Below the pieces are notes generated by a model, which ran no database searches, had not been told where the DNA came from, and saw only the letters and a list, made by a program, of their open reading frames with translations. Below are positions 14,936-62,526 of a stretch of DNA of 64,000 nt, in pieces. The DNA is from Ruditapes philippinarum (taxonomy: Eukaryota), in contig NW_026861034.1 in the NCBI RefSeq assembly GCF_026571515.1, positions 1 through 64,000 of the forward strand, read 5' to 3'. The position numbers were made by a program, and so were the translations under genes. How positions within the stretch are numbered: position 1 is the stretch's first letter; the number at the start of each line of letters is the position of its first letter.

Positions 14936-16289
14936 AAACCTAGTCCTGAAATAATTTCAGACTAATTCTATTTATCTTAATTGGCATCCGAGACACTCGA
15001 GCTCCATGTCTTTTTTTTGTATTAAATGCTTCATTAACCGTCTACCAATGTCATTCACTTGAACATCGGAGTATAATGCTCTGAAAAGAAACCAGCCTAA
15101 CTCAAATATATGAAAATTCTGTACAACTTAACACATACATATTTTTTAATCAAATGGGAAGTAACAGATACGCGTATAACATACTTTGTGTGAAAATTAT
15201 CATTATTTTAAGTTATAAAGAATTAAAGTGACATAAAACAACCATGTTAGTAATACGTCTTAGAACTTAAAATACTAGTTTTACTTTATCATTATTTATA
15301 AGCCCACTTCAGAAACTACATGGTAGACATTTTTGATCAATGAAGAACAGTTACTTAGTGTGTTTACTTTGTGATCAAAGTTTAAACATTTATCATTGAT
15401 AGTGCAGTGGGTTACACTTATTACGTTCTTTTCTTTCCTAACATGTTTTACATTTATCAGTCTTGCAATTATTTAAGACAAGAGCATAAACCTGAGTAGT
15501 ATTCCGTAAGCTTGCAGGCTAGCTCTTTAAATAATAAATTTAAATTCCCTGATTCATTTAAGTACATTTACAGCAGGTTAAAATAAAACAATATTACATT
15601 AATGCTTATAATATTACATCATATAATATGTCAGCATAATTTATAAACATTTTATTGTGTATTTTCCTATATACTTGTAACACTCTTTAGGAAAAAGCAA
15701 TTTCGAATTACATGTTTGTTGTAGCGTATAAACAATCAGACAATCAGTATGTTGGAGTTGATAAATGATGTAGTTGAACATTTAAAAAGCTAAAAGAAAA
15801 TATCAAAAATATCATATTGTTTGTTTTACGTTTTACAATATCAGACATAAATTAACTATTTTAAAGTTTCATTCTTGATTGCAAAGAAGTTGGTTGCAAT
15901 ATGCAACGTTATAATCAGAGAATTCGTAATTGACAACATAATACGTCGCATTGATTATCAATCTATTCAATAAGGTTTGAGTGTTTTTACAGCTCTCAGA
16001 CATTACAAAGTGCTCTTATAATGACCATACTATAGTGAAATGTCTTTCTCTGCTAGAGCCAATATGGTCAGAGTCGTTCACATTTGTTAACTGACAATTA
16101 GATTTTTATCTTCATGATGCTTACATTCAATTTTGGCAATAATTAAAAGTGCTTCAATTGTATTCAATATACGGGACTTTAATACGAGTAAGTATGAACT
16201 GGGAACAAAGTTTTTACGAAATTCAACGTAACTTTTGTGCGTAATGATTTTGCATAAATTGATCAGCTTACACACTACGAGTACATGGT

Positions 16290-16740
16290 CAAAAGACGAA
16301 GGTCATACAAAGATATTATTATCTTGGGTGTTAAAATGACCACTGAACTTTAACAAACACAGTTTACGTCAGCAGCAGGTCAAATTGTAATTTTATGAGC
16401 AGCGTTAACATGGCAAAAGTGTTTGACCACAAAACCCTAGCTATTAGTAATGTAGTTTGTGGTGTGCAAGTATTGAATTGACATTGTACAGCTTAGAAAT
16501 GGTCAACCGGTCGCTATTATTCGCGACACAACGTTCAACCTTTGATTCTAAATGACAGGCGCTAGGCTACTGATATTTAACAACTGGTTGCAGTACCAAC
16601 TCATTCTTACTTTATACCACCTACCAGGATTGGTAACGAAAAATTTCAGTTTCAGCTTCCAAACTCTCCAATTGAGACAAAAGTTACTAAATAATGCCAT
16701 AATGTTTGTGAAGATATGAAATGTTAACCTATTTACTATA
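16290..16740 (+). pseudogene. Ancient CR1-type LINE ORF2 C-terminal relic (paralog ~23880-24350)
   Basis: Remnants across the two paralogs read LGVKMTTEL, YKTL, IDIVQ, INRLVAV, in the order expected for CR1-like ORF2. Many stops and frameshifts. Confidence 0.45.
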
Positions 16741-17969
16741 TATTTCATCTAAGTTTGTATTAATACAATTTTGTACGGCATTTCTTTCTTATGACTTTAA
16801 TTCAGTGCGCCATGATATGAGCAAACATATTGCAGTAACAACTCATTATCATGTATATAAAATGTCATAATAATGCTTGTAACACATTCTCCTGTTTCCC
16901 GTGTTCTTGTAGATTTAATATTATTATTATTGAACGCAGTTTCATTTTACTATTGCACGTTATTAGATAATTAGAGAAATAATTATTTAATTGACAGACA
17001 TTTCAAGAATTTTAATTCTGCTAAGATGTTGTTTAATGAAAATCTACAGACAAACAAGATATATTAATCTGTTTTTAAGCAGTCTCATCCCAATTATTTC
17101 CTTTGTTTTGCACTAATGACCAGATATATGTAATTGAGGTGATTTATATGTCTGATGCAACATGATATTAAGTAGCAATGTATTCTATAAGATGTTAATT
17201 AAATAGAATAGGCAATTGTTTATTAGATAATTAAGAACAACAGGTGAAAACTATCAGCACAAAGAAATAAGTATTGCTAAACCTTAGTTTTCAAGATGCT
17301 CGCATTAAGGAAGCATACAAAACTGTCACCATTTATCATTCTGAGTGTTGAATGAGCTTTAAGTGCAATTATGTAGCCAGACATTGCTCTTTACACTCTC
17401 TTGATATTTCCGATGTGACCCCTGTTGACAGGTTCATTGACATTTAATATGCAATGCTAAATCCTATACTGAGGACGATAACGTCTTATTTAGACTCTTT
17501 AAAGTCTATCTTTACTGATTGGCTTTAAAAGAAATATCTTATAGAACTGCAATTGTTAACATTGGCAAAAATGTGTCGCAAACGGCAAGTATTAATTGCA
17601 CATCTAAATTAATACTCAAAATTAGTTTTTGTGTTCTTAATAAGGCTCAATGCATTCTGGCTATTTAGTGCTTAAAATGAAATAAGAAATAAGGGGTGTT
17701 TTTCAATTATTTTGTGAACATAAAATGTAATGAATATCTTACTCTGAAAGAGTGAAATTAATGGAAAAAGTAAGATTTGCTTAATTTATTTTGTTTTTAA
17801 TTAAGTTAACTTAACTAAAACAAAACACACGTACGGATGGCAGTCGGTAACTCCAAGCACCGTTTGGGAGGTATTATCACACAAGTTTCTTTTACATACA
17901 AGGTAAAGAAACTCGCGTAAGGTTTAAAACCTTAATGTTTTTTCCGGTATTGCATCTGTTGATACAGTC

Positions 17970-18223
17970 TTCATTGAAGATACGTGTCGCATTGAAGGTT
18001 CCATGATAACCGCCATATGAACACATCTGCGGATGTTTCAAAATTCTAAAATTTTACCATTTCATGTTAAATGTTGAATTCTGCTTAAGCCGGTGCTAGG
18101 GGTCGTGGACGGTAACTTGCACTTTCCAGTACCGTCCATGAACAGGCTCAATCAAACCGAGCCTGCAAATTTTTTCAATTTTGCCGTGTTGGGCTTTCTT
18201 TAGGGATTCTGTATTTATCTATT
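17970..18223 (-). mobile_element. Family A copy A2 (truncated), empty site in duplication copy 2
   Basis: The paralog reads cagtcTTCAaaggg (~25596-25609). Here TTCA flanks the insert at 17970-17973 and 18224-18227. Confidence 0.88.
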
Positions 18224-20850
18224 TTCAAAGGGACATATCATCAAAATGTTATGATTAAACATCATGTTCTTCCTGATGAATTAATTAAGTACAGGTTTAC
18301 AATCAAATTTGTCATAAATTATATGCTACATGTGCTTTCTGTCTGCTAAAATATTGTGTACAAGTTGTACAATCAAAAGTTACCTCGTCGAATGAATTTT
18401 AAACGTACTTTCTTTATAACGAATAAATTGCGTTCTAAGAATGACGTCATTTCACCGTTAGGAATGAATTTGTATATTTATATGCTTACATAAGATGGCA
18501 ACTGAGGAAATGATGTTATTCCATTACAAGTTAATTAAATGAGGTAACCAATTTATAGTATGAAAGAAGATACAATACAAATTATCTGAGGTATTATCGG
18601 TATGCATCAGAATATCCGTCTCTCGGGTACATGAGATAGGGCAGGAGTTAAACTACATACCCTGTCATGTCTCTCATTAAGTATTGTATCTCAGTGTGAC
18701 GTACATATACACAGTGAGAAATAACTAAAGATTGTACAGCGTAGAGCTGGCCGATGTATCGCCAAACCTCACACACTAATGCCCTCTTACGTTGTACCAC
18801 CTACAAGGCTAAATAAATGTATCGTCTTTCCTGTAAAAACATCACATATTCTACCAATAAATCTTTACACTTTGTTAATATTTGTTAGCTGACATTCCAT
18901 TGCCATTGTCTCTCATTAAGTAACTCAATCAAAACGAGTCTGTAATTTTCACTATTAAAGTGTTTTCCCCTACCTATATGTACATAAGTTCTTTATTTGA
19001 AATAGTGTTGCTGTTTTCACTGCTTCCGATGGATCATCACTTTTTCCAGATTGTTTTACTTCATAAAAACAAGTAAATACACTTTGTTGTTGCCTAAATT
19101 ATTAACTGAAGATACTTTTGTCATAATTATGAATATAAGCTGTAAACAATACGCCTATTTTCTTATTTCCTATTTTGCCTAAATAAAGAAGGGTATTAGA
19201 GAAATGTTTGTTGAATAAACTTGGATGAACATAAATTGTAATTTAGCTTTAGTTGATGATAATTTACACACAAATCAAATAAAACCTCTAAAAGAAATTT
19301 TATTCCATTTATATCTTTTACTTAAGACACCCAAATCAGATATAAATTCGTTTGTTTAAAAGAAGTCTCATTCCATTTATTTCTTTATTTAACACTTATA
19401 ATCAGATTTAACGACATTATTGATTCGATGTCTTGTCTGAGGCAACATGTTATTAAGTAACAGTGCATTTTGTAAGATTTTAATTGAATAGAAAGGACAC
19501 ATGTGAAGAGATCAAAATTAAGAACAATAAATTTGCTTAATAGTCTAGATAATACTCCCACGTTGTTCATTAAACAGAACATCGATGGGTTTTACTTATA
19601 TAGTCATTGTGCTGCCAATCTAGCCGGTGGTAAGCTACAATTCTATTTTAGAAATAATAAACAATGATTATAAAGAAAGACTTTTTCCGCCATAAATATT
19701 TTGTTAACTGTAACTGAATAATTGCTTGATAATTTAATTTTCTGCGAACAGAACAAGTAAACAGAATTTGTACTGTCTAGGAAACATTATAAACTGTCAA
19801 CATTTATCATTGAGACTGTTTAATGTGTTTGAAGTGCAATTATGTACCAAACAATATATGATAAACAAGATCAACAAGGAAAGGCGGTGTTCAAGACATT
19901 GCTCTTTAATCCCTCTTGATAAATTCAAAGTGACCTTCGATTCATTGAAATATGAAAATGCAATTTAATACCATTCAGACAGGGCGATCAACCTTTTCTT
20001 AGTTTTTTAATGTCAATTTTTGATGGTTTACTTTTACAAATATGTTCCCAATTGCCTTGTTTCATGAACACTATGATTATAACATACTTAATATTTATAA
20101 GTTTGAAAAATGGAGTAGAATTAAAGTTCTTTTGATATGTTCAAAGTGACATTCGTTGTATAAACATTTCTGTAATAAGTCGTGTTCCATGAATTTTATG
20201 TCCATAGCATACTAAAAGTTCATTAATATACAAAATTGGAAATTGAAACTAGAGAAAAAAGGGTACAATTAACATGATTAAATGTGATGAATACATTGTT
20301 TGTAAAATGAAAGTAAAATATATAAACTTGAAATGTGCTGAATATTTTTTTTAATTTGCGGTGATCTTAACCAAACTCCAATGTGGCATTCATGTTGCAG
20401 TCCGTTATTCAAAGGAACAAAACTTTACCACATTGTTTGGTCCCGCGAACCGAATGACGTTCAATTGGGAACTTTGAACTGATATCGTGAGGTGAAAATA
20501 TGTGCATGATCCTTGATAAAGTTCAGCAGCTTAGTGTTTTTCCAATTAAAACACATATTTAGAAACATTCTTTACAAATTGTAACAATTGAATTGGGATA
20601 ATAATTAGTGATATTAAAACGTTTGATATTCAGAAAATGCAATGAAATCAAACAATTTATTTATCTGTTTTGTAAGTGAAATGTCAAAATATTTAATATA
20701 TGACATTACGATAAACAAACTTTCCAGCTTTCTTACTGAACGTCGTCGGTTACTAATTATAAAAATGAAGGCTTTAGTTAATAGAATACTTTTAGTCGCA
20801 TATTGAATTTTTAATCTTACATTTTCGTCATGACAATTTTATGTATTATG

Positions 20851-22049
20851 TACGGTGGTCCGTTTGGGCAATCGTGATTTTTTATTCCGTCCCTACCCGC
20901 GATGAGTGATGATACGATTGTGAAAACGAGATGGTACGATGACACGGTGATGAAAACACGATAGGGCGATGGTGAAAACACGATGATACGATGGTTAAAT
21001 CGCGATGTCGCGATGGTACGATGTTTTAACGCGATGTTTTAACGCGTTTTCACCATCGTACACTCGCGTTTGCACCGTCGTACCATCGCGTTTCCACCAT
21101 CGTACCATCGCGCCATCGTGCTTTCACCATCGTGCCATCGCGCTTTCAACATCGTACCATCGCGTTTTTACCATCGCGCCATCGCGCTTTCCCCATCGTA
21201 CCACCGCGTTTTCACAATCGTACCATCGCGATTTCACCATCGTACCATAGTGTTTTCATCATTGTGCCATCGCGTTTTCACCATCGTACCATCACGATTT
21301 AACCATCGTGCCATCGCGCCATCGTACCATTGCCTTTCGGTCAGTATGACAAGTGCTCATACAGAAAGATGTCAGATTCTAATACGGCAGATAGTAAAAG
21401 GAAGTTTAGAATACTTACTTATTAATTCGAGTTATAAATAATAAAACCTGTTCTACTATACATTTCCACTTATGTCATTATACTATATATAGATCAAACA
21501 TTATTTAATATATGTTTATATACATATACGCTTAATATATAATTGAATTTTTTCTTTTGCTGTATTAAATATATCAACTTGAACCTTTTATGTACAGGGC
21601 ACAAGGATGACAACTTCAATGTTTTAAATTTTTGAGCGATGGTCTTTTGTTATTTTTCATGTTTTAAATACTAAGATCTCAAAGATACGCAAAAAATGGG
21701 TGCGGGGTTAAATAATCAGAAGGCATACATTGTTGATAAAAATGTACCATTGCGCATGACTACCGGAAGACGATGGCACGATGTTGAAACGCGATTGTAC
21801 GATGGAGAAAAGGCGATGGCACGATGGTGAAATCGCGATAGCACGATGGTGAAAACGCGATGTAACATCGTGTTTTCACCATTGTGCTATCGTGCCATCG
21901 CGATTTCACCATGGTACCATCGCGTTTTCATTATCATACCATCGTGTTTTTCACCATCGTACAATCGTGCCATCTTGATTTAACCATCGTACCATCGCTT
22001 ATCGCGGGTACTAAATAAAAAATCACGATTGTCCAAACGGAACACCATA
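20851..22049. mobile_element. Non-autonomous IS3EU-type DNA transposon with ~21-bp minisatellite arrays
   Basis: Terminal inverted repeats (TIRs) TACGGTGGTCCGTTTGGGCAATCGTGATTTTT / AAAAATCACGATTGTCCAAACGGAACACCATA, and a 6-bp TSD ATTATG (20845-20850, 22050-22055). TAY..RTA ends with a 6-bp TSD fit IS3EU. Confidence 0.8.
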
Positions 22050-22730: not shown

Positions 22731-25700
22731 AATTTAAGTTAAATAGAATTTAAGTCAAATAAAACAACCATGTTAGTAATACGTCTTAGAACTTAAAATA
22801 CTTGTTTTACTTGATCATTATTTATTAGCCCACTTTAGAAACTACATGGTAGAAATGTTTGATCAATGAAAGAACAGTTACTTAGTGTGTTTACTTTGTA
22901 ATCAACGTTTAAACATTTATCATTGATAGTGCAGTGCTTACACTTATTACGTTCTTATCTTTTCCTAACATGTTTTACATTTATCAGTCTTGCAATTATT
23001 TAAGACAAGAGCAGAAACCTGAGTAGTATTCCGTAAACTGTCAGGCTAGCTTTGTTTTAAAAATAAATTTAAAGTCCCTGATTCATTTAAGTACATTTAC
23101 ACCAAGTTAAAATAAAACAATGTTACATTAATGCTTATTATATAAAAACATCATATAATATGTCAGCATAATTGATAAACATTTTATTGTGTTTTTTTCT
23201 TCTCATGTACTAGTAACAATCTTTAGGAAAAAGCAATTTCGAATTACATGTTTGTTGTAGCGTATAAACAATCAGACACTCATTATGTTGGAGTTGATAA
23301 ATGCTGTAGTTGAACATTTAAAAAGCAAAAAGAAAATATCAAAAAATATCATATTGTTTGTTTTACGTTTTGCAATATCAGACATAAATTAACTATTTTA
23401 AAGTTTCATTCTTGATTGCAAAGAAGTTGGTTGCAATATGCAAGGCTCAAATAGAGAATTCGTAATTGACAACATAAAACGTCGTATTAGTTATCAGTCT
23501 ATTCAATAAGGTTTAAGAGGTTTTACCGTTCTCAGACATTACAAAGTGCTCTTATAATGACCATAATATAGTGAAATGTCTCCTTGCTAGAGCCAATATG
23601 GTCAGTGTCATTCACATTTGCTTATTGACAATTAGATTTTCATCTTAATGATGCTTACATTTACTTTTGACAATAATTATTAGTGCTACAAATTTGGAAA
23701 TTATTCATTAAGCAGGACTTTAATTAATTGGTATGGACAGTTGGGAACAAAGTTCATACGAAATTCAACCCAACTTTTGTGCGCTATGATTTTGCATAAA
23801 TTGATCAAAACACTACTTACAACTTACTAACGAAATAAAGCAACGTCCACACTACGAGCACATGGTTCAAGAGAAACGAATGCTCATACAAATTACTAAC
23901 TTGGGTGTTAACATTACCAAACACAGGATGCATCAGCACCAAGTCAACCTGTAAATTTATGAGCAGCGTACTTTCAACAACATGGCAAAAGAGTTTGACT
24001 ACAAAACTCTAGCTATAATTTCTGTTGTTCAGTGTAGCGTGCACATGCACAGTATGAAATTGACATAGTACAGCTAAGAACTGGCAAATTGGTCGCTAAT
24101 GAATATTTTCCAACATAACACTCATATTCATTTTTAGGGACTCATAAGGCAAAAACCTATGATACAGAAGGACAGACGCTAGGCCACTGATATTAATCGA
24201 CTGGTTGCAGTACTAATTCTTTCTTACGATTTACCCCCTTACAGGCTTGCTAACGATATATCACCATTTTTCAATTTCTAAAAACTCCATTTAAGACAAT
24301 AGTTACTAAATAATGTCATAATTTCTTAGAAGATATGAAATGTTAACCTATTTACTGTATATTTCATTTTATGTTTGTATTAATACAATTTTGTAGAGTA
24401 TTTCTTTCTTTATGATTTTATTTCAGTGTGCCATGATATGAGCAAACAATTCATTATCATGTATATATTAGTCATAATTATGCATATAAAACTTTCCCCT
24501 GTTTCCCGAGTTCTTGTGTAGAATCAATATCATTATTGAACGAAGTTTCATTTTACTATCACACGAGAATAAGAGAAATAATTATTTAATTGACAGACAC
24601 TTCAAGAATCTTTATTCTGCTAAGATGTTGTTTAATGAAAATCTCCAGACAAACAAGATATATAAATCTGCTTTAGAGTAGTCTCATCCCAATTATTTCC
24701 TTTGTTTTACACTAATGACCAGATATATGTAATTGAAGTGACTTATGTGTCTGATGCAACATTTAATATAGTAACAATGTATTTTTAATTATAAGATATT
24801 TATTAAATAGACCGAGTAACAATGTATTTTTAATTATAAGATATTTATTAGATAGAACGGGCACTTGTTTATTAGAAAATTTAGAACAACAGGTGAAAAC
24901 TATCATCATAAAGAAATCAGTATTGCTAAACCTCAGTTTACAAGATGCTCGCATTAAGGAAGCATACAAAACTGTCACCATTTATCATTAAGACTGTTGA
25001 TTGAGCTTAAAGTGCAATTATGTAGCCAGACATTGCTCTTTACACTCTCCTGATATTTCCGAAGTGACCCCTGTTGACAGGTCATTGACATTGAATAGGC
25101 AATGTGAAATTCTATACCGAGGACGATAACGTCTTATTTAGACTGTTTAAGTCTTTCTTTACTGACTGGCTTTTTAAATATATATCTTATAGAACTCCAA
25201 TTGTTAGCATTGGCAAAAATGTGTCGCAAACGGCAAGTATTAATTGCTCATCTATATTAATACTCAAAATTAGTTTTTGTGTTCTTAATAAGGTTCAATA
25301 CATACTGGCTATTTAGTGCTTATAATGAAATAAGAAATAAGGGGTGTTTTTCAATTATTTCGTGAACATAAATTGTAAAGAATATCTTACTCTGAAAGAG
25401 TGAAATTAATGGAATAATCAAAAAGTAAGATTTGCTTAATTTATTTTGTTTTTAATTAATGGCAGTCGTTAACTCCAAGCAGCGTTTGGGAGGTATTATC
25501 ACTTTTACACACAAGGTAAAAAAATTCCCTCTCGTATTGTGAACTCGCGTAATGTTTAAAACCTTAATGTTGTTCCGGTATTGCATCTGTTGTTACAGTC
25601 TTCAAAGGGACATATCATCACAATCTTATGACTGAACATCATGCTCTTCCTGATGATTAAGTTTAGTACAGGTTTACAATCGAATTTTTCATAAATTATA

Positions 25701-26103
25701 TGCTACATGTGCTTTCTGCATGCTAAAATATTGTGTACAACTAGTACAATCAAAAGTTACCTCGTTCGAATGAATTTTAAACGTACTTTCTTATAATCAA
25801 TAAATTGCGTTCTAAGAATGACGTCATTTCACCGTTGAGAATGAATTTGTATATTTATATGCTTACATAAGATGGCAACCGAGGAAATGATGTTATTTTC
25901 CATTACAAGTTAATTAAATGAGGTAAACAATTTATAGTGTTGTAGAAGAATATGCAATACAACGTAGCTGAGGTACATGTATTATCGGTACACATCAGAA
26001 TATCCGTCTCTCGGGTACATGGCCAGGGGCAGGAGTTTAACTATATACCCTGTCATGTCTCTACTCAATGTGACGTATATATACACAGTATGAATTAACT
26101 TAA

Positions 26104-27452
26104 AGCCACTGACCTCCAGATGGTAAAATGAAAAAAAAAATGAAATAAAATTTCAAGTAAACAGTAAATACTGATCTAGTTAGGTTTATTGTATAAATCC
26201 ATCATCACTGACACCTTAATTCAAGAAAGAATGTTGACAAAAGCGTTAATTTATCGGGTTTTTCTTTTCCATAATCTACTACGTTACTAACGCAGTAGCA
26301 ACTATAAATAGGAGAAGATAATTCATTTAACGCGGTCACGTGTCACACCAGTGGTCCGGAAAAATCCCGGTATCCGGTATGCCCGGGATCGTTTATCAAT
26401 TTTCGTCATTGGGTAGGCCCCTATAACATTTCAAGCTAAAGGTTAAATCGATAAATTGGTCGTCATATATATGAAATAATTAATCAATTATAATATTTAG
26501 GGCCATGGATTACTACAAATATTAAGAGGATATTTTTTCGTTTTTCGTGAAATATGGAATATATTTTCACGAAACATGATAAAATGCCACATATTTTCAC
26601 GAGCCGGGACGGAGAGTGAAAATATGTGGCATTTTATCATGTTTCGTGAAAATATATTCCATATTTCACGAAAAACGAAAAAATAACCTTTTCATTTAAT
26701 TTCATTATCAAAGAAAAATGGTTACGAACCCCCTTGCTTGCTACGCAACTACAATTGTACAGCGTGCAGTAATATAATTATTTTCTTGTTTTGCACGCGA
26801 TATTTAGCGCTACATTGTGACGTCACGTAAACAACTCTTTTAACGTCTGTACAGCGTTAATATATGAATTAAAGATATTGGTGTTCGGATTAATTTTCTT
26901 AGTTAGACCATTTTCTATCAGTCTAGATAGTTTTCAAAACAAAATTCAACAAAAAGATTTTTGTATTTATCAGATTTTTCAAACAAAATGGCGAAAGAAG
27001 TCCTTTAAAATAAATATGAGTTTTGACTCCGCCCACTTTCATATTTATATTTCATATTTATTTCTAAAAAATATGAAATATATTTGACTGATATATCACC
27101 ATATTTCATGAGTAAAATTAAATAAAAAAACAAATTAAAGCAATTATTGGTATCCCTATATGTTTGATAAAATCCCGGATTCCGTGCGTTCCGGAGCACA
27201 GGTCGCGATATTGTCCTGTACGATCACGTGATAATAGAAAAAAACCCGGATGAAAGAATTCCGTGGTATAATAAAAGAAGGTTATTCCCGTTGGTGGAAA
27301 CGCGAACCGTTTGTTTTTAGAGAAATAATGTTAAAATATGAACATTTTGAAGTGTCATTTCGTTTTCTTTCAACAATATAATGTTTTTGAGGGGGGATTT
27401 TGAAATATTAGCAAGACGCAGTTTTTCTGCTATCTTCTGGAGGTCAGCTGCT
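26104..27452. mobile_element. Kolobok-type non-autonomous DNA transposon
   Basis: TTAA|AGCCACTGACCTCCAGA ... TCTGGAGGTCAGCTGCT|TTAA. Absent from copy 1 (~18725). Confidence 0.8.
26520..27125 (+). mobile_element. Palindrome-bearing (Crypton-like) non-autonomous element nested in the Kolobok MITE
   Basis: Near-perfect ~70-bp inverted arms (~26528-26688) around CGAGCCGGGACGGAGAG. Boundaries are approximate. Confidence 0.55.
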
Positions 27453-30400
27453 TTAAGAAAGTACAAACATCACATATTCTACCAATAAATCATTACACTT
27501 TGTTAATATTTGTTAGTTAACCTTCCATTGTCTCTCATAAAGTAACTCAATCAAAACGAGTCTGTAATTGTCACTATTAAAGTGTTCTCCTTTACCTATA
27601 TGTCCATAAGTTTTAAATCGAGTGTGCAATTTTCAAATAATATTGCTGTTTTCACTGCTTCTGAGAGATCATCAGTTTTTCAAGATTTTTTTACTTCATA
27701 ACAACAGGTGAATACATTTTGTTGTTGCCTAAATAATCACATGAAAAGATTTTTGTCTTAATTGTGCATATAATCATAAGCTGTAAAAATGCACCTTTTT
27801 TCTGATTAAGCCTTAATATAGAAGAGTATTAGTAAAATGTTTGTTTAATTAACTGGGACGAACATAAATTGTAATTTTACTTTAGAAAAACACAAATCAG
27901 ATAAACACTTCTGTTTAAAAGAAGCCTCATTCCATTTATTTATTTTTCTTAATACTTATAATCAGATTTAACGACATTATTGATTTGATGCTTTGTCTGA
28001 GACAACATGTTAACAGTGCATTTTATAAGATTTTAATTGAATAGAAAGGACACATGTGAAGAGATCAAAATCAAGAACAGTAAATATGCTTAATAGTCTA
28101 ATCATTTCTTTTTTGTAAATACTCCTACGCTGTTCATTAAACAGAACATCGATTAGTCATTTTGCTGCCAATCTAGCCGGCGGTAAGCTACAATTATCCT
28201 TTAGAAATAATAAACAATGATTATAAAGAAGGACTTTTTTCGCCGTAAATATTTCGTTAACTGTAACTGAATGATTGCTTGACAATTTAATTTTCTGAAG
28301 ACAGAACAAGTAAACAGAACTTGAATTGTTAAAAGCTCGAATTCACGCGCATCCAGGAAACATAATAAACTGTCAACATTTATCATTGAGACTGTTGATT
28401 GTGTTTGAAGCGCAATTATGTACCAAGACGTTGCTTTTAAAAACCTCTTGATAAATTCAAAGTGACCTTCAATTCATTGACATTTGAAAATGGAATGTAA
28501 TACCTTTCAGAGAGGGCGATCAACCTTTACTTAGCCTTTAATGTCAATTTCTGATAGTTTACTGTTAAAGATCTGTCCTCAATTTGCCTTGTTTCGTGAA
28601 CACTATGCTTACAACATACTTAGTATGAGAAATGGAGTGGAATTAAAGTTATTTTGATATGTTCAACGTGACCTTCGTTGTAAAAGATATTTCTGCAATT
28701 AGTCGTGTTCCATGAATATTATGCCCATAACATACTTAATGTTTATAATTATACAAAAGGAATTGAAAAAAGAAAAAAAGGGGTACAACTGAATGGGATG
28801 AATACACTGTTTGTAAAATGAAAGGAAAATATATAAACTTGAAATAGACTGAATATTGTTTTGTTTGAAGTGAACGAAACCAAACTCCAATGTGGCATTC
28901 ATGTGGCAGTCCGTTATTCAAAAGAACAAAACTTTGCCGCATTGTTTGGTCCCGCGAACAAAATGACGTTCAGATAGTAATTGTTAATTGATATCGTTAA
29001 GTGTAAATATGTGCGTCAGCAGCTTAGTGTGTTGCCAATTAAAACACATATTTAGAAACATTTTTTACAAATAATAACAATTGAAATGGCATAATAATTA
29101 GTGATATTGAAACGTTTGTTATTCAGAAAATGCGTTGAAATCAAACAATCTATTTATCTTTTTTGTAAGTGAAATGTCAAAATAAAAAATGTTTGCAGCT
29201 TTTGAGGAAGCTAATACAATGTTAGTTGTAACAATATCTTAATAAGGCATTGAATTGTCTGTGAAAGGTGCAGAGAAAAGAAAAGAATGCAGTTTATATT
29301 AAATCAATTGCAACAAACACTCCCCCCACAAAGATATAAGAAATAATGTAGTTAATTTTAAGATTGTGTAATGTTTATTGCATGCAATTGCATCGCTTTC
29401 AAGCAGAGAAAAAATAGTTTCTTACGAAATATGATCAACAGAAATGCGGAATATGCATAATCAGGTCTCACGTTATCTAATGCAAAGTTTCAATCAATAT
29501 CCTAAGAGAACGATTCCGAAAAGTACAATCGGTCGTTCATTTACATTGAAATAAATTTATAAATTCACGGCCAGCATTTATAAAAAAAACGGAAGTTTGA
29601 GAAAGCTGCTTGATAGAGTGGAAATGCAGTCAAGAAGTTTCAGAACAAAATGTAAATCATGGTGTGTTAATGTCAATTATTAGAGATTAACTGTAGAAGA
29701 TGTACTTGTTCAGTTAAATACTTATTGTCCAAGCAGTTAATAGAGTTTGACAAGCTTTCCGATCAATTGAATGCACATCTTCTTACCAGTGATCAAGCAG
29801 AAAAAAGAGTAACAGTGGGATAGACCAGGTACAGAACACGCCTCTTCATGCTTTAAGGCAACATAAAATAGAGGAGTAGCAGTAATGCACACACATGGTA
29901 AATGACTGTACTCGTAAGTATTAACATTAAGTTACCTTAGGTTTTCAAATTAACTTGGCTTAGTATCACCATTACCTCTTTCTAGGAAAAGTTGTGGCAG
30001 GAACGTAATCTTGCCGGATATCAGCAAAATGTATATGTTTCAAATTAAAGCTGAATTGACTATCTAATACAGACGATTGACCGTTATAATGGTAATTAAT
30101 CAAAAGTATGTGTCATTGATAGACACGACAGTAGTAGTGTTTGTAATGACCAGACTTGCTTTTTAGTATCTAACAATTTCGAAGTCACTGTTGTAGTTGA
30201 ATTTAGATTCTTAAAAATTTTAAAGGACAAATAAAAAGTGCAAATTTAGAGAATATTTATGGATCAGTTCAAAATACCTGTCCAATACATGTCATACCTA
30301 CACACTAAAGAAACTCAAGCAGATGATATATCACGAGGCACAACATTTGAAGCATAACCAACTCTAGTCGGTGGTGGCACGACCCTAAGTGTCCTTTCAG

Positions 30401-38325: not shown

Positions 38326-38903
38326 CCGTACATTTAATCAATGATGTTATATTTTCGATCCTTGAAGATCGTTTAGCACGACATTATTGTTGTGCTTGTG
38401 GTATTTTTTGTTTCAACTTTCGGCATTTTCTAGTTGGGTGGTTCCAATATTCCTACTTGAATAATGTTGAATCACCCTTAGGATATGTTGCCTGCTTTTT
38501 AAATTTGTCTTTTGACGTCTTATCTGTGATATGCAGGCTTCATAACCTCAGATCCCCTTTCAAAATTCCATTTTATTTAGTTCCGCCCATTGTTTTCTCG
38601 TTTAGGGCACACGCATTCTTTTACTTGGGGACCATACGCCGCTTTTCATGGAATGACACTACTGTGTCACATTGAAGGTTCCATGATAACCGCCGTATGA
38701 ACACATCTGCGGATGTTTCTAAATTCAAAATTTCACCATTTTAGTGTTGAAATGTTGAATTCTGCTTAAGCCGGTGCTAGGGGGCGTGGACGGTAACTTG
38801 CACTTTCCAGTACCGTCCATGAACAGGCTCAATCAAACCGAGCCTGCAACATTTTCAATTTTGCCGTGTTGGGCTTTCTTTAGGGATTCTGTATTTATCT
38901 ATT
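38326..38903 (-). mobile_element. Family A copy A3 (nearly a full unit)
   Basis: Reverse complement of 2226-2803 at high identity, with the same fixed terminus. Confidence 0.9.
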
Positions 38904-39414: not shown

Positions 39415-39670
39415 TGTCCCCTTCCACTGTGCCCTTTGACTTTGTGGGCCTATTATTCAATAATTTATTTGTTGTCTTTGAATTCCTTATCAGTTACAAA
39501 TTATTTATCATTTTAGTAATTAACCTGTCCGTGCTCTGTCGTGTGCTATGTCCTGTTTTTGTTTGGGGTCCGCCTGGGCTAATTGCCACTGGTTCTTGTT
39601 GCTGGGTCGTAAAGGGGTTGCGTTCATTGAACGCCGCCTTTCTTTGTTGATCTTGTTTATCATATTCTTC
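39415..39670. repeat. Unclassified interspersed repeat (related fragment at 62272-62377)
   Basis: Both loci share the block ttgaac.ccgcctttc.ttgt.gatcttgtt.atcatatt. Confidence 0.55.
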
Positions 39671-43741: not shown

Positions 43742-44505
43742 TACGTTAAGGTTGGCTAGAAGCACGGAATTGCAGGCTTGCCATCTGTGATATATAGATG
43801 TTGCAGTATATTATAATTTGTTTTCATATTAACTTAAATATAAGTACAGTTAAGAGCAAAATTATGCGAAGCCTTATTAAATACATCGTCCTCGTTTAAT
43901 AGCCAATATTTAATATTTAAACTACCGTTATTGTTAAATGAAACAGAGACAATATTATTTACGTCTAATTCATGTTACGTTTTTTTGCAGCTTTATCTTA
44001 TTTCCATGCATTAGTAATACACTAACATAATATTAACACCAGAAAAGATTTGCGATTTGTGATTTTTATAACTTTTAATTAACAAAACTTTATTTTGATT
44101 GCAGTGTAGCCTCATGAACAAGACACTTTCCAACCACACAACCTTTAAAGCGAGTCAAAAGTGTATTCTATCCAAATTCACACAGACATAATTCATACAC
44201 GTTTACAATTACGATATTAGCCGTGCATGAAATAAATATAAGTAACACTCGATGCAATATAATAGAAAACAATACTTTGACATAATATTTATAACAACCA
44301 AATGTCCATCTACGCATTTGGAAACGAATTTTGTCCATTTGCCCTTTTGTCTACAAGTGGAACATTTCAATTTTTAAATAGATGTCAAATACCGCAGAAG
44401 AGATGCAATTAAATTAGGCTGTTTTTTGCTACCGAGCGGCGAGTAACTTAATGTATTAATACTTGGAAAGATACTCTTATTTCGCAGATTTCTAGCACGT
44501 TCAAT

Positions 44506-44596
44506 GCAAGGGGGCGTGGGCGATAGTTTGACTTAGCACTACCATGAACAGGCTAAATCAAACCGAGCCTGCAATATTTTTGGATTTGCCGTGTTT
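44506..44596 (-). mobile_element. Divergent relative of family A (subfamily D), structured core only
   Basis: Minus strand reads GCAGGCTCGGTTTGATTTAGCCTGT-TCATG-[different stem]-CACG-CCCCCT. Confidence 0.7.
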
Positions 44597-51416: not shown

Positions 51417-53696
51417 TGAAGGAGCACATTTGTCTCGGAGCACATTTGTCTCACGAAGTGTGACCGATGTGTTCGTAAACATTCATATTTGCGACAAATT
51501 GGAAATGAGACAGATGTGTTCGACATACAATAGAAAGGGCATTCGAAGCACATTTGTCTCACATTTTTCCATAAAATTCTTAAAAGGTAATAATTATGCC
51601 CGTCCGTTTACCGGCAACCAGCCATTGTTCTGTGTTTTCTGTATTTATAAAACCGTTTTTAGGTCACTTCCGGTCAGTCAAAAACGTCCTGCCTCTGCAT
51701 AGGAGTCATATAATTAAATTAAAGAATATCCCTGTTCTGCATGTCACAATGAAAATTTCTACAAGTGCAGCATCCAGAACCTAAACACATATGCAGCAAG
51801 TCTATTGTTATCGTTATCAATTGTAATACGTTTATTTTCAATGCTTTAAGTTTTATAAATGATTTATGGCACTAGAAATATTCTTAGAAAAAAACAAGGT
51901 AGTATCTACGGTGGCATAAAGGGGACATACAATTTTCTTATTTATTACGTGCGCACACGATAGCTTTTACGTGGTCACGCGATACTATTACGTGCGCCCG
52001 CGATAGCTATGACGTGCGCTCGCGGATATGTATTCCGCATTTGGACACTGACCGGGATCCTCGCAAAGTTCGATGAATAGTTCGATGCCCCGTGTATATG
52101 TCGAACCTACAGCGGTTAGGGACAAGTGTTTTTTTTTTAAATCAATCGGCCACGGAGGCCCTTAAATGATCTATGGAAGAAAATAAGAAGACCATTACAC
52201 ACGTATTTTGTTTTCATCAGAAATATATGTATGTAAAAATCGTCATTTTCCAAGAATTGCGGCTTTCAGATCCGCCATTGAAAAAGCACTTACAACATGT
52301 ATATGAGTTCCTAAAATAATCCGGGTAATGCCATAATTATGGAATATCGGACCACTCAGAATCGTGCGAGACGCGACATTCCGATGAGACACGAAGCGAG
52401 GCACGATATTGTAACACGAGATCTCGCAATGTCGAAGTATCCGGTACCACGAAATTTCAGAAATGAATAAATTTTTACTTCTTTAGATAGAGCAAGTATG
52501 AATTTACTAATATTCAAATAATGATTTCTGAGGAAGTTAGATGCTTGTAATCTAAAGAAATTCGCGATATATATGAAATAATGCGTCATAAAAGTAGCAA
52601 AATGTAAACAATGTAGTATTTTGACTTTAATATAAAATTCTAAATCACTTCAACTGTACAAACTGCAAAAAAGCAGCAGATGAAAAATGCTTTAGGTAAT
52701 TAGCCAACGAGTAACTTTTTGGAGCTATAAAAGTATACCAAAAATTCAAAGCTTTTAAGGAATACAAATAAAAGCATTTCTCAGGCATAATGGGCCTTTA
52801 AGTGATTTTATGAAGACTATAAAGGGAATACTAATTAGCGGTATATGACCTGGAATCAATTTCTTGTCTTGCGTCGAGATGCGAAGCGAGATTTCGGCGA
52901 GATGCGAAACGAGTCGCGATATTGTATCATTCAATATCAACCGAGTACGGTGTTCCGTTTGGACATAAGTAACATTTTTGACTCCTTGAACAGCTATGCG
53001 CACTGGTACAAAGGTGAAATTGAGATGGTACGATGATTAAAACACGATGATGCGATGACACGATAGAGGAAATAATATCGCGTTTTCATCATCATGCCAT
53101 CGCAGTTTCATCATATCGTACCATCGCATTTTCGCAATCGTAACATCGTCTTTCACCATAGTATCATCAGGTTTTCATCATCGAACCTTCGTTGTTTCAC
53201 CATCGTACAATCGTTGTTTCACCATCGTACAGTTGTTGTTTCACGTTCGTACCATTATGTTTTCACCATCGCACCATCGCGTTTTCATCAACGTAACATC
53301 GTGCCACCGCGGTGTCACCATTGTACCATCGTGAACGGGATTTAGAGATATTATGATTATAGTTCACTTTAGGTTTTCATAAAGAAAGCATGAACAAACC
53401 TATTGATCATTACACTTGACATGAGGTAAAACGGTGAATCTCAATTCTTAAAAAAATTTCTGCCGACAAATAATTTCTAAAAAATGACATGAGACAAATG
53501 TGCTTTCTTGTCCCTTAAAGGAACATGAGACAAATGTGCTTTCTTGTCCCTTAAAAATATTGATCGGAGCACATTTGTCACACAAATGAGTTTTTTGGGG
53601 TAGACATTTGAGGTCCCATTTGTCTCGTGTGGGACAAATGCGACTGCATTGGTCTTACGTAAGACAAATGTGCTCCGAGACAAACGTGCTCCTACA
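51417..53696. mobile_element. Non-autonomous TIR element with TG..CA ends, 6-bp TSD and nested MITE fragments
   Basis: TIR TG(A/T)AGGAGCAC.TTTGTCTCGGAGCACATTTGTCT, TSD AAGCCC at 51411-51416 and 53697-53702, and subterminal CACATTTGTC repeats. Confidence 0.85.
52946..53335. mobile_element. IS3EU-like MITE fragment nested in 51417-53696
   Basis: TACGGTGTTCCGTTTGGACA terminus and TTTCACCATCGTAC units, as in 20851-22049. Confidence 0.65.
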
Positions 53697-56600
53697 AAGC
53701 CCAACATGGCATAATTGTTAAATGTTGCAGGCTCGGTTTGATTGAACCTGTTCATGGATGGTACTGAAAAGTGCAAGTTACCGTCCACGCCCCTAGCACC
53801 AGCTTAAGCAGAATACATCATTTAAACACAAAATGGTGGAATTTTGAATTTAGTTACATCCGCAGATGTGTTCATACGGCGGTTGTCATGGAACCTTCAA
53901 TGTGACACAGAAGTGTCATTCCATGAAAAGCGGCGTATGGTCCCCAAGTCAAAGAATGCGTGTGCCCTAAACGAGAAACAATGGGCGGAACTAAATAAAA
54001 TGGAATTTTGAAATGGGATCTGAAGTTATAAAGCCTGCATATCACAGACAACAGAACGTAACTGTTTATATCTTAAAGCTAGTAATACTTGAAGGCAAAA
54101 TTGCAAATAGTTAAATTTAAAGGATTTTTTTCTTAAAAGCGTAAAAATAAATTAGATTGTGAGTAAATGTAATTAAAAAGATAGATTTCATCAAGGAACA
54201 CGTCCATACGTGAGTTATTGCAATATTCAATTTACCCTTATCTAAGAACAATGAAAATTGAGTTTTAAGCAAAGCGGTAAAAGGCTAGATGAACAGATAA
54301 TTGATGAACATTAAATTGTATCAGTGTAGTGGAAACAATGACATCGGTATGTTTGTGTGAATTAAAGAATGATTAAAAAGTTCCTTTTTAAGGTAATTGG
54401 GACTATATACTGATTAAAAAGAACTATTCCGTAAAATGCTTGACGGTATTTAATGAGAATTTTATCCAATTAGATTTTAGTAAGATATACATGTATAATA
54501 CAATTAAATTGAACCTAAATTCATTTAAGAACTAACCTACATACTACAACACTGACACATGAAGTAAACAAAGTTAATTAAACTGTGACAGTGACATGAA
54601 TGTTTTTCAAGCCGTTTGATGTAATACCATACAATAATTTACCCAACCCTGTTTCAGATGTTCTCGCATCAACCACATTTTTTCCTATTTCATAAAAACA
54701 TAAAAATGAAAAAAATTCCAAGGAGTAACGGTTATCAGCCGTAACGTTGAATTAACCATTGACAAATTAATTAATAATTAATTCTAAAAACGCCCTCGTG
54801 ATATAATTCCTCGCATCCGAACTCCAAACAGTGATGTTATTGAGCGATAAAATCACTGTTTGGGATATATCTTTTCTTAAATGAATATATGAAAATAAAT
54901 TGAAATACATGTAATACAATGCTGCACCTGAATTTATTTACGGTATAATATAATTCCACAAAAAGGTCATATAATGCAAATCGGAACACCTACTATTACT
55001 CATGAAAATCTCTTAATATGGACTGAAATTGTTCAACGACGTTGTGTTTTAGATGTAAACAAAAACAGAAGATGACATCTCTGTATCATGTTTAACTAAT
55101 TTATGCATTTGACATCTAAAGGAAAATAAAGGAAACAGTCTTTTACGGCGAATTTATGATTAAAACAATATGTATGACAATCATAATCACTTGAGAAAAA
55201 GTTCAGTGATGTACAATTATGTCGACATATTTCTATTTTGTACTTTCGGTTTGTATAACCATACCATAATGATACTAAATATATGAAAAATGTAAGGTTT
55301 ACCTTTATATCTATAAATTTTTGAAATTTATGCGACATATTTGAATAAACTAAGTTAGCAACTCTCATCATTTAATTACCATTTCTTTACATGTAGTTTC
55401 TTAGCGTAGGTTACATCGAAATGTAGTACTCTTTCTTCTTTGTTCGCGGTTTTTACTCTAAGATAGACGGAAATGACGTAAAAGTTGCGATTGATATAAT
55501 GCCGGTCAAACTCAAATTGAAAACATCAAAAAATATATGTGATAATAATTCTGAAGTAGAAAGAAAGTTGTCAAGGGATATTGTAAAATGTAAAAAGAAA
55601 TCAACTTAACATAAAATTTATTATCTTGCATGAAGAATACTTTTAAAATATAATAATCGTTTGATTTAAGAAAGATATAAAGAGAACATTTTTATTGCGA
55701 ATCAATCAAAATAATTGATTGTTAAAGTAATAAAAATGAAATTGAATGCCGGACAAATTATCAAAATCCGTTGTATATATGTAGCAAAATGACACCGTGT
55801 TTCTCTTGTTAATGTTTTTCTTTGGATGAAACGTTTAGGTTAACGAACTCTCAGACAACTTGTAAACAACTTTATATGCCAGAGTACATAGTTTGTCTAT
55901 CCTGGTGTTATAAAGAAGTAAATTACATACATTTTACAATAAACAGTCATATATTACGCTATTTACTCTTGATACTACATACATTGACAGCTGTCGTTAT
56001 TATTTCGTAAATAAATTATGTAGAATATGAAATGATTTTTAACGAATATTTAGATAATCACTCAAGAGGACTAATAGAATGACCTTAACGAGAGATAGTT
56101 ATCTAAAGCAGTTCTCACTGGAATAAGATGACGTCTAGAGAAAATGCGTGTTTCATAAGCGTTAATACGAAATATTTGAAAGGGGTGTCCTTGTATGAAG
56201 TTTGACAAACATAGACAATACAACTGGTAAAGTTGTATAAATTAAAGACACGAGAATCATGTATTTGGGGTTTAACACTAATCTTAGTAGACTGGACATA
56301 TAGCTGCAAACATGGACTAAAATACGTACATAATCCTATTGATCAGCCAAATCGTCTGTAAACAAAGATAACAAATATTTGACAGCGCATGGACAGCTGT
56401 TTGTGAACACATTGACAACTCAAGGAAGTTACAAATCAATATTTCTAGCAGAATACCAAAATATTATTTCTCTGAAGTTATCACAGCCAATTCAACTTTT
56501 ACAGGGTTACGTAATTACTGTCAACAGAAGCAAATACTTCTGTTGCACGTAATGTACTCATATATTTTAAAATGTATCTATCTGCGTGTACAATTCATAT

Positions 56601-57190
56601 AACTCCTTTTTTCATGATGTATCTTTATAATTTATTGTTGATTAAAATATTCGGCTTATGATATGTACAACGACCAGTGAACTAGTTTGAATGATAAAGT
56701 TTGTCTTTTAAAAGCTATTTTTATCATGGAAAGCAGACATTGAAAGCGTTTGCAACATTTTTTATTAAAACATAATAATACAGTAAAATTCGATGGTGCT
56801 AATTCTCTGAATGAAGACAGGAAAATACATTCCTTCTTAATTTACTTCTTATATGGAATATACTTCTTATAAGGAACATTACTGTCGTCTGTTTATTAGA
56901 ATTTGTATATTAATCAACAATGCAATATTAAAGAAATACTCTGAAGACAATTGAATGAATGATGTTATAAGAAAAAATGACACATCATATCGAAATTACT
57001 TTTTGAATAGGTTATTTGTCAATTGTGATTATATTTTTACGCATCTAAAATCTGCAAGTTAAAGTTCTTGAAATTCATGAAAGATCAATATTAAAATCAT
57101 TTCCAATTAATAAGATAAATTAATCTAATCCAAAAGACAAACTAAGTTTTTAGAGTAGATATAAACATCGGCATAGACGTTTATGAAAAT

Positions 57191-57720
57191 CTGGAAGAAG
57201 GGTGTTCACTTGGAAGAATTTATCATTACTTGGAAATCGCAGACTTGGTTTGATTGACTCTGTTCATGGGGGTTAATGAGAAAGTGCAGCATCTCTCACG
57301 CTCTCTATCAACGGCTTGAGGGGTACTCCATCTTCAACAATTTAAGTGTTGGAGGACCAGAAAATACGAAAATACTGAAATAAAGTAGGGGGCAATATTT
57401 TACAGCTGCCACACGGCACTTGACACCTGCTGCTGTGAAGTTCTGGAAGAAGGGCGATACCACGGAAGCAGTAATCCAACAAAATTTCATGAAAATTGCA
57501 GACTTAGTCTGATTGAGTTTGTACATGAGGGACAATTAAAAAGTGAATCATACATCTCCCACGCCCCATAACACTAGGTCATCGATACACAATTTTCAAC
57601 ACTACAAAGTGCTGAAATTGATGATGCCGGAGGAACAGAAAAATATAACAACTCAGAAGTGAAGTACAGGACAACTTTTTACAGTTGCCATACGACACTT
57701 GACACCTACTGTTGTGAAGT
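57191..57720 (+). repeat. Head-to-tail dimer of divergent ~252 and ~279-bp monomers sharing the family A core (subfamily B)
   Basis: CTGGAAGAAGGG at 57191 and 57443. Each monomer has GCAGACTT.GT.TGATTGA...TGT.CATG...CACG and TTTTACAG.TGCCA.ACG.CACTTGACACCT.CTG.TGTGAAGT. Confidence 0.8.
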
Positions 57721-61250: not shown

Positions 61251-62526
61251 AGGCACGTCATATTTATATAATCTGGGCATTTCCTGTAACATATTTAGTT
61301 CATTGAATTCTTAAATATTTGAAATTGTCACATAAACCAAGACGCAGGAGTGTAATAAACACATTTAATAAAACGATATTACACAAGTAACACTTTGACA
61401 CGTCATTTGCGTTATACAGAAACATAGCGTTAAATCTTAGCATTGCATTATTGGCGTGGCGACAAAAAGAATGACACTTTTTTTAAAAACTAAACACTTT
61501 TTTAATTTTAGATATTTGATAAATAGATTATAACATTCGTGTAGATACAATACTAAATGTATTCAACTCGTTAAATAAATTTAGTATTTTATCTACAATC
61601 ATTTAATATCCTTTTAATATATGGCATTGATAAACAAATAAAAAAAGTGAAACTGTTTCATTCGATGCTGCATGTAACCCGTGTGAAAGAAGTTAGCAAA
61701 TTCTTATTATTTTTATATTTATAGACCCGTTTGATATTAAACAGAAAATTTGAAACTTATGTTATATTTAATGTATTTATCTACTTTAAAAGAAACTAAT
61801 TAAAAGAAATATGCGAAACAATGACTCAGATATTAGTGTGAGAACTGCCACATTGCTTTATGTCTTTTCAGCAGTAATTGTCGTAAGGCAATAAATATTG
61901 TATTGGATTTAATATGGCTGTCAATGAACAATTCTAACACTCACGTGAATTTGTCACTATAGACAAAGAAGGAAAAAACGGGTGTTAAACTGACAATACA
62001 CACCGGTAACGGACTATATGTTATCGGCTGTTCTTTTTACTACTACACACACCGAGTCAAATTTTCTATGCGTTTTTACTATTATTTTTCGTACCTAAAG
62101 AGCTTTCGGTATATGATATTATTATACTCGTAAACAAACAATTTACTTCCTCTGATAAAAAAATATATACTTCTTTCTAAATCTCGTTCTATCGATAAAA
62201 TTTATCAATGAAAGTCACGTGACGTAAACAAATCGTAGTAAAAGCGTCTCTAACGTAGTAAAAAAATGAAAAATGTCCCACAGTTGCCGTATGTTCCGTT
62301 TGTTGGGTTGGTTGTGTTTGTACTGCTAGGAGGCTTTGAACACCGCCTTTCCTTGTCGATCTTGTTCATCATATTTGAAGGGAAATGGACAGTTGTTAAT
62401 CATATATACGATGGTCTTGTGATGAAATGTTTGATACAGTCTTTAGAAACTGGGGAAACTGCAACTCGTTTCAACTATGAAATAACAGAGCTAGGGACAA
62501 CCAGCTATGCTGATCTAAATACATAT

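Follow-up and report, generated by a model that had tools for sequence, protein, structure and literature searches.

The locus at positions 57182-57719 of the window (the whole 64-kb stretch of DNA that was analysed) is an ordinary old, decayed dimer of a dispersed family, designated here as family B, and it no longer folds. Family B is a short non-coding tandem family that shares an end hairpin with the autonomous Penelope-like element Naiad. On balance, its copies were probably made by the Naiad enzyme, and its young units carry a fold that is predicted to be a twister-sister-like ribozyme dependent on a dimer.

Two adjoining monomers occupy 57191-57720, with start-to-start distances of 252 and 279 bp and 67% identity (E 1e-19). 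In the phase of family B, they are B1 at 57182-57440 (259 bp) and B2 at 57441-57719 (279 bp). An earlier note made from the sequence had described two adjacent and strongly different monomers, and this description is correct. Its motifs were also recovered at their plus-strand places, namely hairpin 1 (starting near 57239 in B1 and 57498 in B2), AAAGTG in the loop of stem 2 (57281 and 57540), TGCCACACGGCA at 57407-57418, and in B1 TCTTCAACA at 57331-57339, TGTTGGAGG at 57347-57355, and GAAAATA at 57360. The enclosing stem of TTTTACAG(C/T) with G(C/T)TGTGAAG pairs at 9/9 positions in both monomers when G-U is counted, but it is not the covarying stem. This plus-strand stem was rejected, as its GCTGTAAAA side is identical in 9/10 family rows while the partner side varies, and that variation is matched instead by a different, longer hairpin. 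The B1 hairpin TCTTCAACA/TGTTGGAGG is present too, but it flanks a private 16-nt deletion of B1 and is not a compensated equivalent of CGATCT/GGATCG in element A. The conserved fold and the RNA sense of family B are on the minus strand, not the plus strand. The features of the locus are as follows.

57182-57719, minus strand: whole insertion, an old head-to-tail dimer of the non-autonomous family B, RNA order B2 then B1
57182-57440, minus strand: monomer B1, the 3' unit; its identity to a young B copy is 75%, and private deletions remove about 9 and 16 nt
57441-57719, minus strand: monomer B2, the 5' unit; its identity to a young B copy is 80%
57182-57194, minus strand: fixed 3' terminus of the family (U-run), putative start of reverse transcription according to 3'-end counts in B, A, and Naiad
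57347-57467, minus strand: junction hairpin across B2/B1, common with the autonomous Naiad, decayed here (21/31 pairs, z -0.7)
57486-57601, minus strand: twister-sister-like module of B2 (P5 strand, P2, loop strands, P3, P4), decayed; 90 bits with model R1, in which this copy is included
57227-57339, minus strand: twister-sister-like module of B1, decayed; 99 bits with model R1, in which this copy is included
57568-57578, minus strand: what is left of the B2 palindrome, with the 5' strand of the catalytic loop, in which two core letters are changed
57310-57321, minus strand: 3' strand of the catalytic loop in B1, which holds the predicted C^A step and a change at the G59 equivalent, together with what is left of the palindrome
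57524-57563 (B2) and 57265-57300 (B1), minus strand: P3, which is stem 2 of the earlier note
57499-57521 (B2) and 57240-57262 (B1), minus strand: P4, which is hairpin 1 of the earlier note

No target-site duplication longer than 5 nt was seen at the insertion, and a search of the whole 64-kb window with Rfam at gathering scores gave no match.

The genome has 1.4 Gb and, judged by its clam-type Naiads, is probably that of a bivalve. When the dimer was used as a query of this genome, 4321 first-look candidates were obtained and 40 of them were scored; the best other matches are 76-80% identical. Family B has 283-bp units in short dispersed tandem arrays, with copies of the order of 10^4. Young copies form arrays of two to five units of 283-284 bp. 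Family A, the element A of that note, is a sister of B with 630-bp units. Arrays of A and B have 1-5 units and are non-coding, and no match to the Naiad protein is better than E 0.04. In 25 young B arrays, the units differ by 1.6% within and by 3.4% between arrays, and at three diagnostic sites 3-5/64 within-array pairs differ, in comparison with about half of the pairs between arrays. According to these values, arrays start nearly homogeneous and few are mixed (L017 and L019). Four loci from other organisms were found in a metagenome scan. Three of them (L193, L195, and L196) represent family D, with 281-bp tandem units about 72% like B and with the junction hairpin; the fourth (L194) is a second Naiad, with RT 64% identical and the same junction hairpin.

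Rough copy numbers were taken from the depth of runs X19 and X24, which are labelled RNA-Seq, but their reads break and join at GATC and they were treated as proximity-ligation (probably Hi-C) DNA. With this bias near GATC, the runs give about 2x10^4 3' halves of B and about 1x10^4 3' ends of Naiad; the 5' ends of Naiad number only in the tens to hundreds. Four copies of family A in the window keep all or part of the core described below.

2224-2920, minus strand: young family-A copy, with intact twister-sister-like core at 2349-2365 and junction hairpin at 2761-2882
38326-38903, plus strand: family-A copy, 5'-truncated, core intact
17984-18225, plus strand: 3' fragment of family A, core intact
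53696-54051, minus strand: internal fragment of family A, loop strands intact, palindrome with one change

Old A-like copies at 4471-4940 and 44480-44595 (about 67-80% identity) still score with the module model R1. Very old B-like fragments lie near 18905-18951 and 27527-27693, carried by an old local duplication of 15207-20691 and 22733-29184 with about 80% identity. Naiad 3' fragments are located at 39415-39666, 62336-62376, and 19856-19894. A 145-bp tandem array of 5.7 copies and inverted 22-bp minisatellite arrays (12374-13195, 20936-21998, and 53013-53333) are unrelated to B. A 453-codon open frame with LINE-type reverse transcriptase motifs is coded on the plus strand at 5968-7329.

The difference between B1 and B2 was compared with a young B copy. 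Corrected distances are 0.23 (B1 to young B), 0.20 (B2 to young B), and 0.34 (B1 to B2), and in 251 three-way columns 12 changes are shared, while 36 and 30 are private. These distances and counts fit descent of B1 and B2 from one ancestor that differed by about 5% from young B, followed by independent decay of 16-18% in each. When placed on the structure of young B, private changes of B1 hit 31/183 paired and 8/76 unpaired positions (Fisher p 0.25), and those of B2 hit 28/196 paired and 9/78 unpaired positions (Fisher p 0.70). This is the neutral decay without stem bias that the earlier note had itself set against its model. In B1, 26/31 hit pairs are broken and 5/31 are kept (6.5 expected); in B2, 14/28 are kept against 8.5 expected, a small excess. 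Unconstrained folding of the palindrome-to-palindrome stretch of the dimer gives z +1.0, compared with -7.8 in the young B copy. The composite catalytic loop of the dimer has 3/11 core letters changed and 3/6 P1 pairs. Among full-length matches no close relative of the dimer above 80% was found in the 40 of 4321 candidates that were scored, and the query with B1 alone also gave no full-length relative above 80% among 40 scored candidates. The distances and the loss of the fold support a dimer that landed long ago near-homogeneous and then decayed neutrally.

The model of the earlier note was that B1 and B2 form a functional heterodimer, or an old higher-order unit that arose by template switching, and that the pair represents the minimal active construct. 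Template switching is indeed real in these families, as at least 2/25 young arrays (L017 and L019) mix subfamily variants, chimeric joins of A, B, and Naiad are common, and B2 keeps slightly more pairs than the neutral expectation. Nevertheless, the three-way distances, the lack of stem bias, the lack of a near relative of B1 or of the dimer among the scored matches, the lost fold, and the altered catalytic letters make this model highly improbable. A selected or higher-order heterodimer is not supported, and neither is the decayed locus as a minimal functional unit or best construct. What remains of the interpretation is a structured, retrozyme-like tandem retroelement with the 283-bp B unit as its compact form, for which a two-unit construct is apt; the locus itself is not that construct. 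It is a fossil, chiefly useful as a (negative) control, and a young array is the better construct.

The third sequence often joined to A and B ends is the 3' end of a Penelope-like element. Its full copy L103 has a 1087-codon frame with six TGA codons, four of them at cysteines conserved in homologues. N-terminal GIY-YIG-type, CxC, DKA, and C-terminal RT motifs are present in the protein, and homologues are annotated with PF01541 and PF00078; a Pfam search and a solved-structure search with the L103 protein itself gave nothing significant. A SECIS-like element after the frame scores 32.7-33 bits with SECIS_1, just below the Rfam gathering score of 35. By its sequence, L103 matches the clam selenoprotein Naiads as they are described in PMC8557442. 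On the minus strand of the window, the start of A matches the initial 83 nt of the Naiad body with 93% identity, and B matches 60 nt of it with 85% identity. This A/B-like 5' end was present in 30/30 loci fetched with a Naiad 5' end. Naiad copies have a pseudo-LTR, 5' truncation seen as a depth gradient, and tandem and inverted copies. Ends at +30 to +45, as of a 30-40-bp tail class, were found in 0/130 Naiad, 1/109 A, and 0/81 B ends, and (TA)n target bias was not seen, the flanks having 65% A+T in comparison with 67% further out.

End statistics were computed from 100 of 192 loci, with a bias toward long copies. The 3' ends lie no more than 8 nt from the unit boundary in 51/65 B, 67/89 A, and 64/77 Naiad cases, and the 5' ends are scattered. 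Of 218 5' ends, 55 abut another A, B, or Naiad piece, compared with 450/11437 control points, and nested insertion could account for part of them. In RNA reads of both B and Naiad, the alignment breaks off directly behind the U-run. Fixed 3' ends, scattered 5' ends, and this loss of reads together form the pattern of target-primed reverse transcription of minus-strand RNA.

Short dispersed arrays of similar size are common in bivalve genomes, and family B could on this ground be a DNA-level element, i.e., an internal repeat of a Helitron or Helentron or a dispersed satellite, with hairpins acting in single-stranded DNA. Tandem repeats associated with Helitrons or Helentrons have conserved sequence on both array flanks. 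Such conserved sequence was not found on the array flanks here, where one end is fixed, the other is scattered, and the flanks are unrelated. As the invariant G-U pairs of the conserved module pick one strand (minus) and the 5' module is common with an element that encodes an RT, a DNA-level element is extremely improbable.

The fixed 3' end is located inside a long imperfect hairpin, to which one unit contributes its end and the following unit its start. In the sense strand, the z values of this junction hairpin are -4.8 (B), -4.2 (A), and -3.3 and -3.7 (two Naiads); in antisense they are -1.8, -1.2, and -1.7 and -3.1, respectively. One old A copy has -0.9 and the flagged dimer -0.7. With helix registers set by hand, 31 of 31 pairs are formed in B, 30 in A, 28 in Naiad, and 21 in the flagged dimer, and two-sided changes occur in 9/31 pairs among B, A, and Naiad and in 12/31 when D is added. 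Retro-copying of a structured RNA by another reverse transcriptase (LINE), with the Naiad likeness reflecting ancestry only, would be in line with the terminal 30 nt of B, which differ from those of Naiad, and with other RT families present, including the RT-like frame at 5968-7329 of the window. It is nevertheless very unlikely, as neither a poly(A) or simple-repeat tail nor a target-site duplication was seen, the 3' end lies at the same hairpin position as in Naiad, and joins to Naiad pieces are frequent. With high confidence, family B is regarded as a Naiad-dependent tandem retroelement.

In the Poseidon element, as described in PMC11167929, reverse transcription begins within a stem-loop and requires downstream RNA, and hammerhead cleavage is unnecessary for insertion in vitro. 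By analogy, reverse transcription of Naiad, A, and B likely starts inside the junction hairpin at the U-run. If initiation takes place inside a hairpin that spans the unit boundary and needs RNA downstream, only tandem or circular RNAs can be templates. The 3' arm of the hairpin (2761-2775 in the window A copy) can also self-fold locally in A, B, D, and Naiad, UUCG-capped in B, and it could act as a switch once the 5' arm has been opened by cDNA synthesis. With a splice donor in the pseudo-LTR (L119, 1197-1721) and an acceptor in the 5' UTR (L103, 1861 and 5' UTR), the junction hairpin would be intronic, and an intronic location of such a hairpin has been described for Penelope and Chlamys-3. 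No intron-skipping joint was found among the 15 of 718 joints listed.

The module common to A, B, and D consists of three helices, P3, P4, and P5, with 24 pairs in total, of which 11 have two-sided changes, and 92.6% of cells are paired. This was reached in 0/500 shuffles, and 37-45% of cells are paired when the module is slid; these values come from nine rows, B1 and B2 among them, the shuffle test is inflated by relatedness between rows, and the independent families are three only. In six Naiad UTR sets searched with model R1, no four-way module match was significant, and the strong matches came from A or D copies nearby. Ahead of the helices, the sequence is GCUCAA-GCCGGU-GCUAG in B, GCUUAA-GCCGGU-GCUAG in A, and GCU(C/U)AU-GC-GCUAG in D. 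The twister-sister loop is described in PMC5660989 as G5 C6 A7 A8 G9 / G59 C60 U61 C62^A63 U64, with A7U and C62U tolerated and with P2-P3-P4-P5 meeting at a four-way junction. The loop strands of A, B, and D are the same as this loop except for A7U, C62U, and, in A and B, U64A. In the LINE-1 TS-like ribozyme the loop is active and activity needs no SL4, according to the description in PMC11620745, and the B loop is identical to that loop at all 11 positions. The catalytic loop L1 (G5 C6 x7 A8 G9 / G59 C60 U61 x62 A63 x64) is in young B, A, and D, and not in the flagged dimer. In each unit, both loop strands are joined by a palindrome in place of P1.

A descriptor with both loop strands, P2 of at least 3/4 pairs, and a self-complementary spacer matched 0 (B), 2 (A), and 4 (D) of 5000 shuffles each, rates that are flattering, since the descriptor was written post hoc and several ribozyme classes had been compared earlier. 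In the window it matched the four A copies only. The exact core is kept in 133/187 copies examined. When a B copy is folded from palindrome to palindrome without constraints, P1, the loop, P2, and the four-way junction are predicted (z -7.8, MFE the same as centroid), and the initiation hairpin extends P5 in this fold. For D, the MFE has the same topology with z -2.3, and the centroid lacks P1, P2, and P5. For A, P1, P3, and P4 are retained in the MFE, and P2 and P5 are absent from it. P2 is weak, with 3/4 pairs in B and largely G-U pairs in A and D.

An intramolecular P1 was not found in the units; there is only the self-complementary spacer, 6-nt in A and B or 2-nt in D, and P1 is predicted to form between adjacent units. 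The conserved SL4 described for twister-sister in PMC5660989 (G29 U30 G31 C32 A33 A34 G35 U36 C37) was not found either, and the P4 loop is AAU(C/A)AAACC. At E<=10, Rfam recognized no ribozyme family on the repeat units of nine loci, and a weak hairpin-ribozyme match (E 3.5) lies outside the array. Based on the odd P4 loop, the missing P1 within the unit, and the missing Rfam score, the module is called twister-sister-like and is not filed as a member of the class. No hammerhead core, exact or with one mismatch, was identified on either strand in A, B, Naiad UTRs, or the flagged locus, and Rfam gave no hammerhead in the window at gathering scores or in the nine loci at E<=10. Twister, pistol, and HDV readings of the B unit, which came from comparison by eye, were dropped, as their pairings are not kept in A and D. 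A U1A-type loop for stem 2 was also dropped, as family D changes that loop.

At the RNA level, none of the indexed data sets with the sequence was listed as RNA, which does not count as evidence, and two unstranded runs cover the family 100-550-fold, equally in both directions and mostly as pieces of longer transcripts. Discrete RNA ends were not found in these two runs, where 86-87% of aligned reads continue into unlike sequence, and such libraries lose small RNAs. Unit-to-unit joints are present in 45 and 66 reads, which tandem DNA explains too. No significant pile-up of genomic 5' ends was found at the predicted cut (B 0/25, A 5/45, p 0.10), and circles or uncut RNA could be the template.

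The family could also be a non-autonomous Naiad derivative without a working ribozyme, its arrays arising only from the need of the enzyme for RNA downstream of an internal start. The four-way module would then be a protein-binding, stability, or promoter element, and a run within it is GC-box-like; the twister-sister likeness would be vestigial or due to chance. Internal initiation in Poseidon and its in vitro insertion without hammerhead cleavage (as described in PMC11167929) agree with this explanation, and so do the non-canonical SL4, the missing Rfam score, the lack of 5'-end pile-up, and the lack of discrete RNA ends. It does not account well for the retention of both loop strands in A, B, and D across a spacer change from 6 to 2 nt that leaves the spacer self-complementary, nor for an exact core in 133 of the 187 copies examined. 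Naiad itself also argues against it, as 6/6 copies examined with the twister consensus have, in the 3' UTR, a twister-like fold in which palindromes likewise stand in for P1. This segment lies at about 1950-2030 (minus strand) in L103 and is also in L119, L168, L169, L170, and L194; in L194 its letters are changed but paired. All in all, the absence of a working ribozyme is rather unlikely, and the preferred reading is that the family uses a working dimer-dependent ribozyme of twister-sister-like type, which is moderately probable.

The proposed life cycle would begin with read-through transcription of the minus strand, giving a multimer RNA. In the second step, palindromes of units n and n+1 are predicted by unconstrained folding to pair as P1, so that both the catalytic loop and the four-way junction become complete. 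Cleavage by the predicted ribozyme at the C^A step, or U^A in A, would release unit-length RNA, possibly circularised, and a circle of a single unit would be stable as it cannot form P1. In the third step, the Naiad protein would bind the boundary-spanning hairpin, for which Poseidon is a precedent, and target-primed reverse transcription would start from the U-run, where the 3' end is fixed. In the fourth, copying would span one to five units and stop randomly or switch to A, B, or Naiad RNA, in agreement with the pattern of ends and joins. In the last, the flagged copy would have been inserted long ago as a near-homogeneous dimer and decayed neutrally. The third to fifth steps are very probable. 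A wider proposal is more tentative: clam-type Naiads and their parasites may have swapped the hammerhead for the twister clan, with a palindrome-armed twister in the autonomous element. The 283-630-nt parasites would possess an active twister-sister ribozyme of permuted four-way form, whose assembly requires two adjoining units, and their units may circularise and be fed to the Naiad RT via the shared initiation hairpin.

If this is true, these parasites would be retrozymes of a new type, and a natural twister-sister ribozyme would be known from a mobile element of an animal, which would give this ribozyme class a biological role there. The ribozyme class would be exchangeable, and the conserved design would be a palindromic arm completed in tandem transcripts. 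Independent of catalysis, the shared hairpin pins a candidate binding or initiation site of about 120 nt for the reverse transcriptase of Naiad, which is related to telomerase and for which the literature searched describes no in vitro system. That literature, passages of mainly open-access articles, contained neither a non-autonomous family of Naiad nor an initiation hairpin of Naiad nor a retrozyme of twister-sister-like type. It covers hammerhead retrozymes, dimer-cleaving Penelope-like hammerheads, non-autonomous Chlamys, and minimal human TS-like ribozymes (PMC7229834, PMC6765202, PMC7761336, PMC10085705, PMC8782182, and bioRxiv 10.64898/2026.07.22.740005).

Metazoan non-LTR retrozymes, as presented in PMC7229834 and bioRxiv 10.64898/2026.07.22.740005, are similar to family B in having non-coding units of the 150-450-bp class in short tandem arrays; Penelope-like mobilisation is proposed for them, and some cleave only as dimers. 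A Penelope-like partner with related terminal sequence, as belongs to a retrozyme, is present in this genome. Retrozymes are defined by hammerheads, whereas B and A have none, and their candidate ribozyme is twister-sister-like, known here from sequence and predicted folds. The partner is a Naiad, which shares a defined covarying hairpin with them. L103 resembles the clam Naiads of PMC8557442 in GIY-YIG, CxC, DKA, and RT, in TGA codons at the described cysteines, and in SECIS. Pseudo-LTR, 5' truncation, tandem and inverted copies, and the lack of hammerhead, canonical ones being absent from Naiads according to that description, are also alike. In contrast to those Naiads, B is non-coding and 283 bp long, and neither the 30-40-bp tail nor the (TA)n bias described there is seen here. 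Non-autonomous head-to-tail forms with 3'-end similarity are described for Chlamys (MRC1), and not for Naiads, in the passages of PMC8557442 consulted.

With the four-way twister-sister (PMC5660989; RF02681), the module shares the L1 strands, P2 on the far side, the order P2-P3-P4-P5, and the predicted cut at the same step. It differs in being permuted within a unit (open at P5), in having, instead of P1, a palindrome of 6 or 2 nt that depends on a second copy, and in SL4. The class is placed in bacteria and phages in PMC5660989, whereas the module belongs to an animal retroelement. B and the LINE-1 TS-like ribozyme (as characterized in PMC11620745) have the same 11 loop letters and strand order, but LINE-1 TS-like ribozymes are single motifs of 31-35 nt with an intramolecular stem and little conservation, in contrast to the conserved four-way junction in a high-copy tandem element found here. 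Minimal hammerheads of Penelope-like elements that cleave as dimers, as described in PMC6765202 and PMC7761336, also have a palindromic stem that is replaced by pairing between tandem copies, and the ribozyme class is different. Poseidon, according to the account in PMC11167929, is similar in the RT start inside a stem-loop and in the need for downstream RNA; it has two sites bounding a tail, whereas Naiad, A, and B have one start site.
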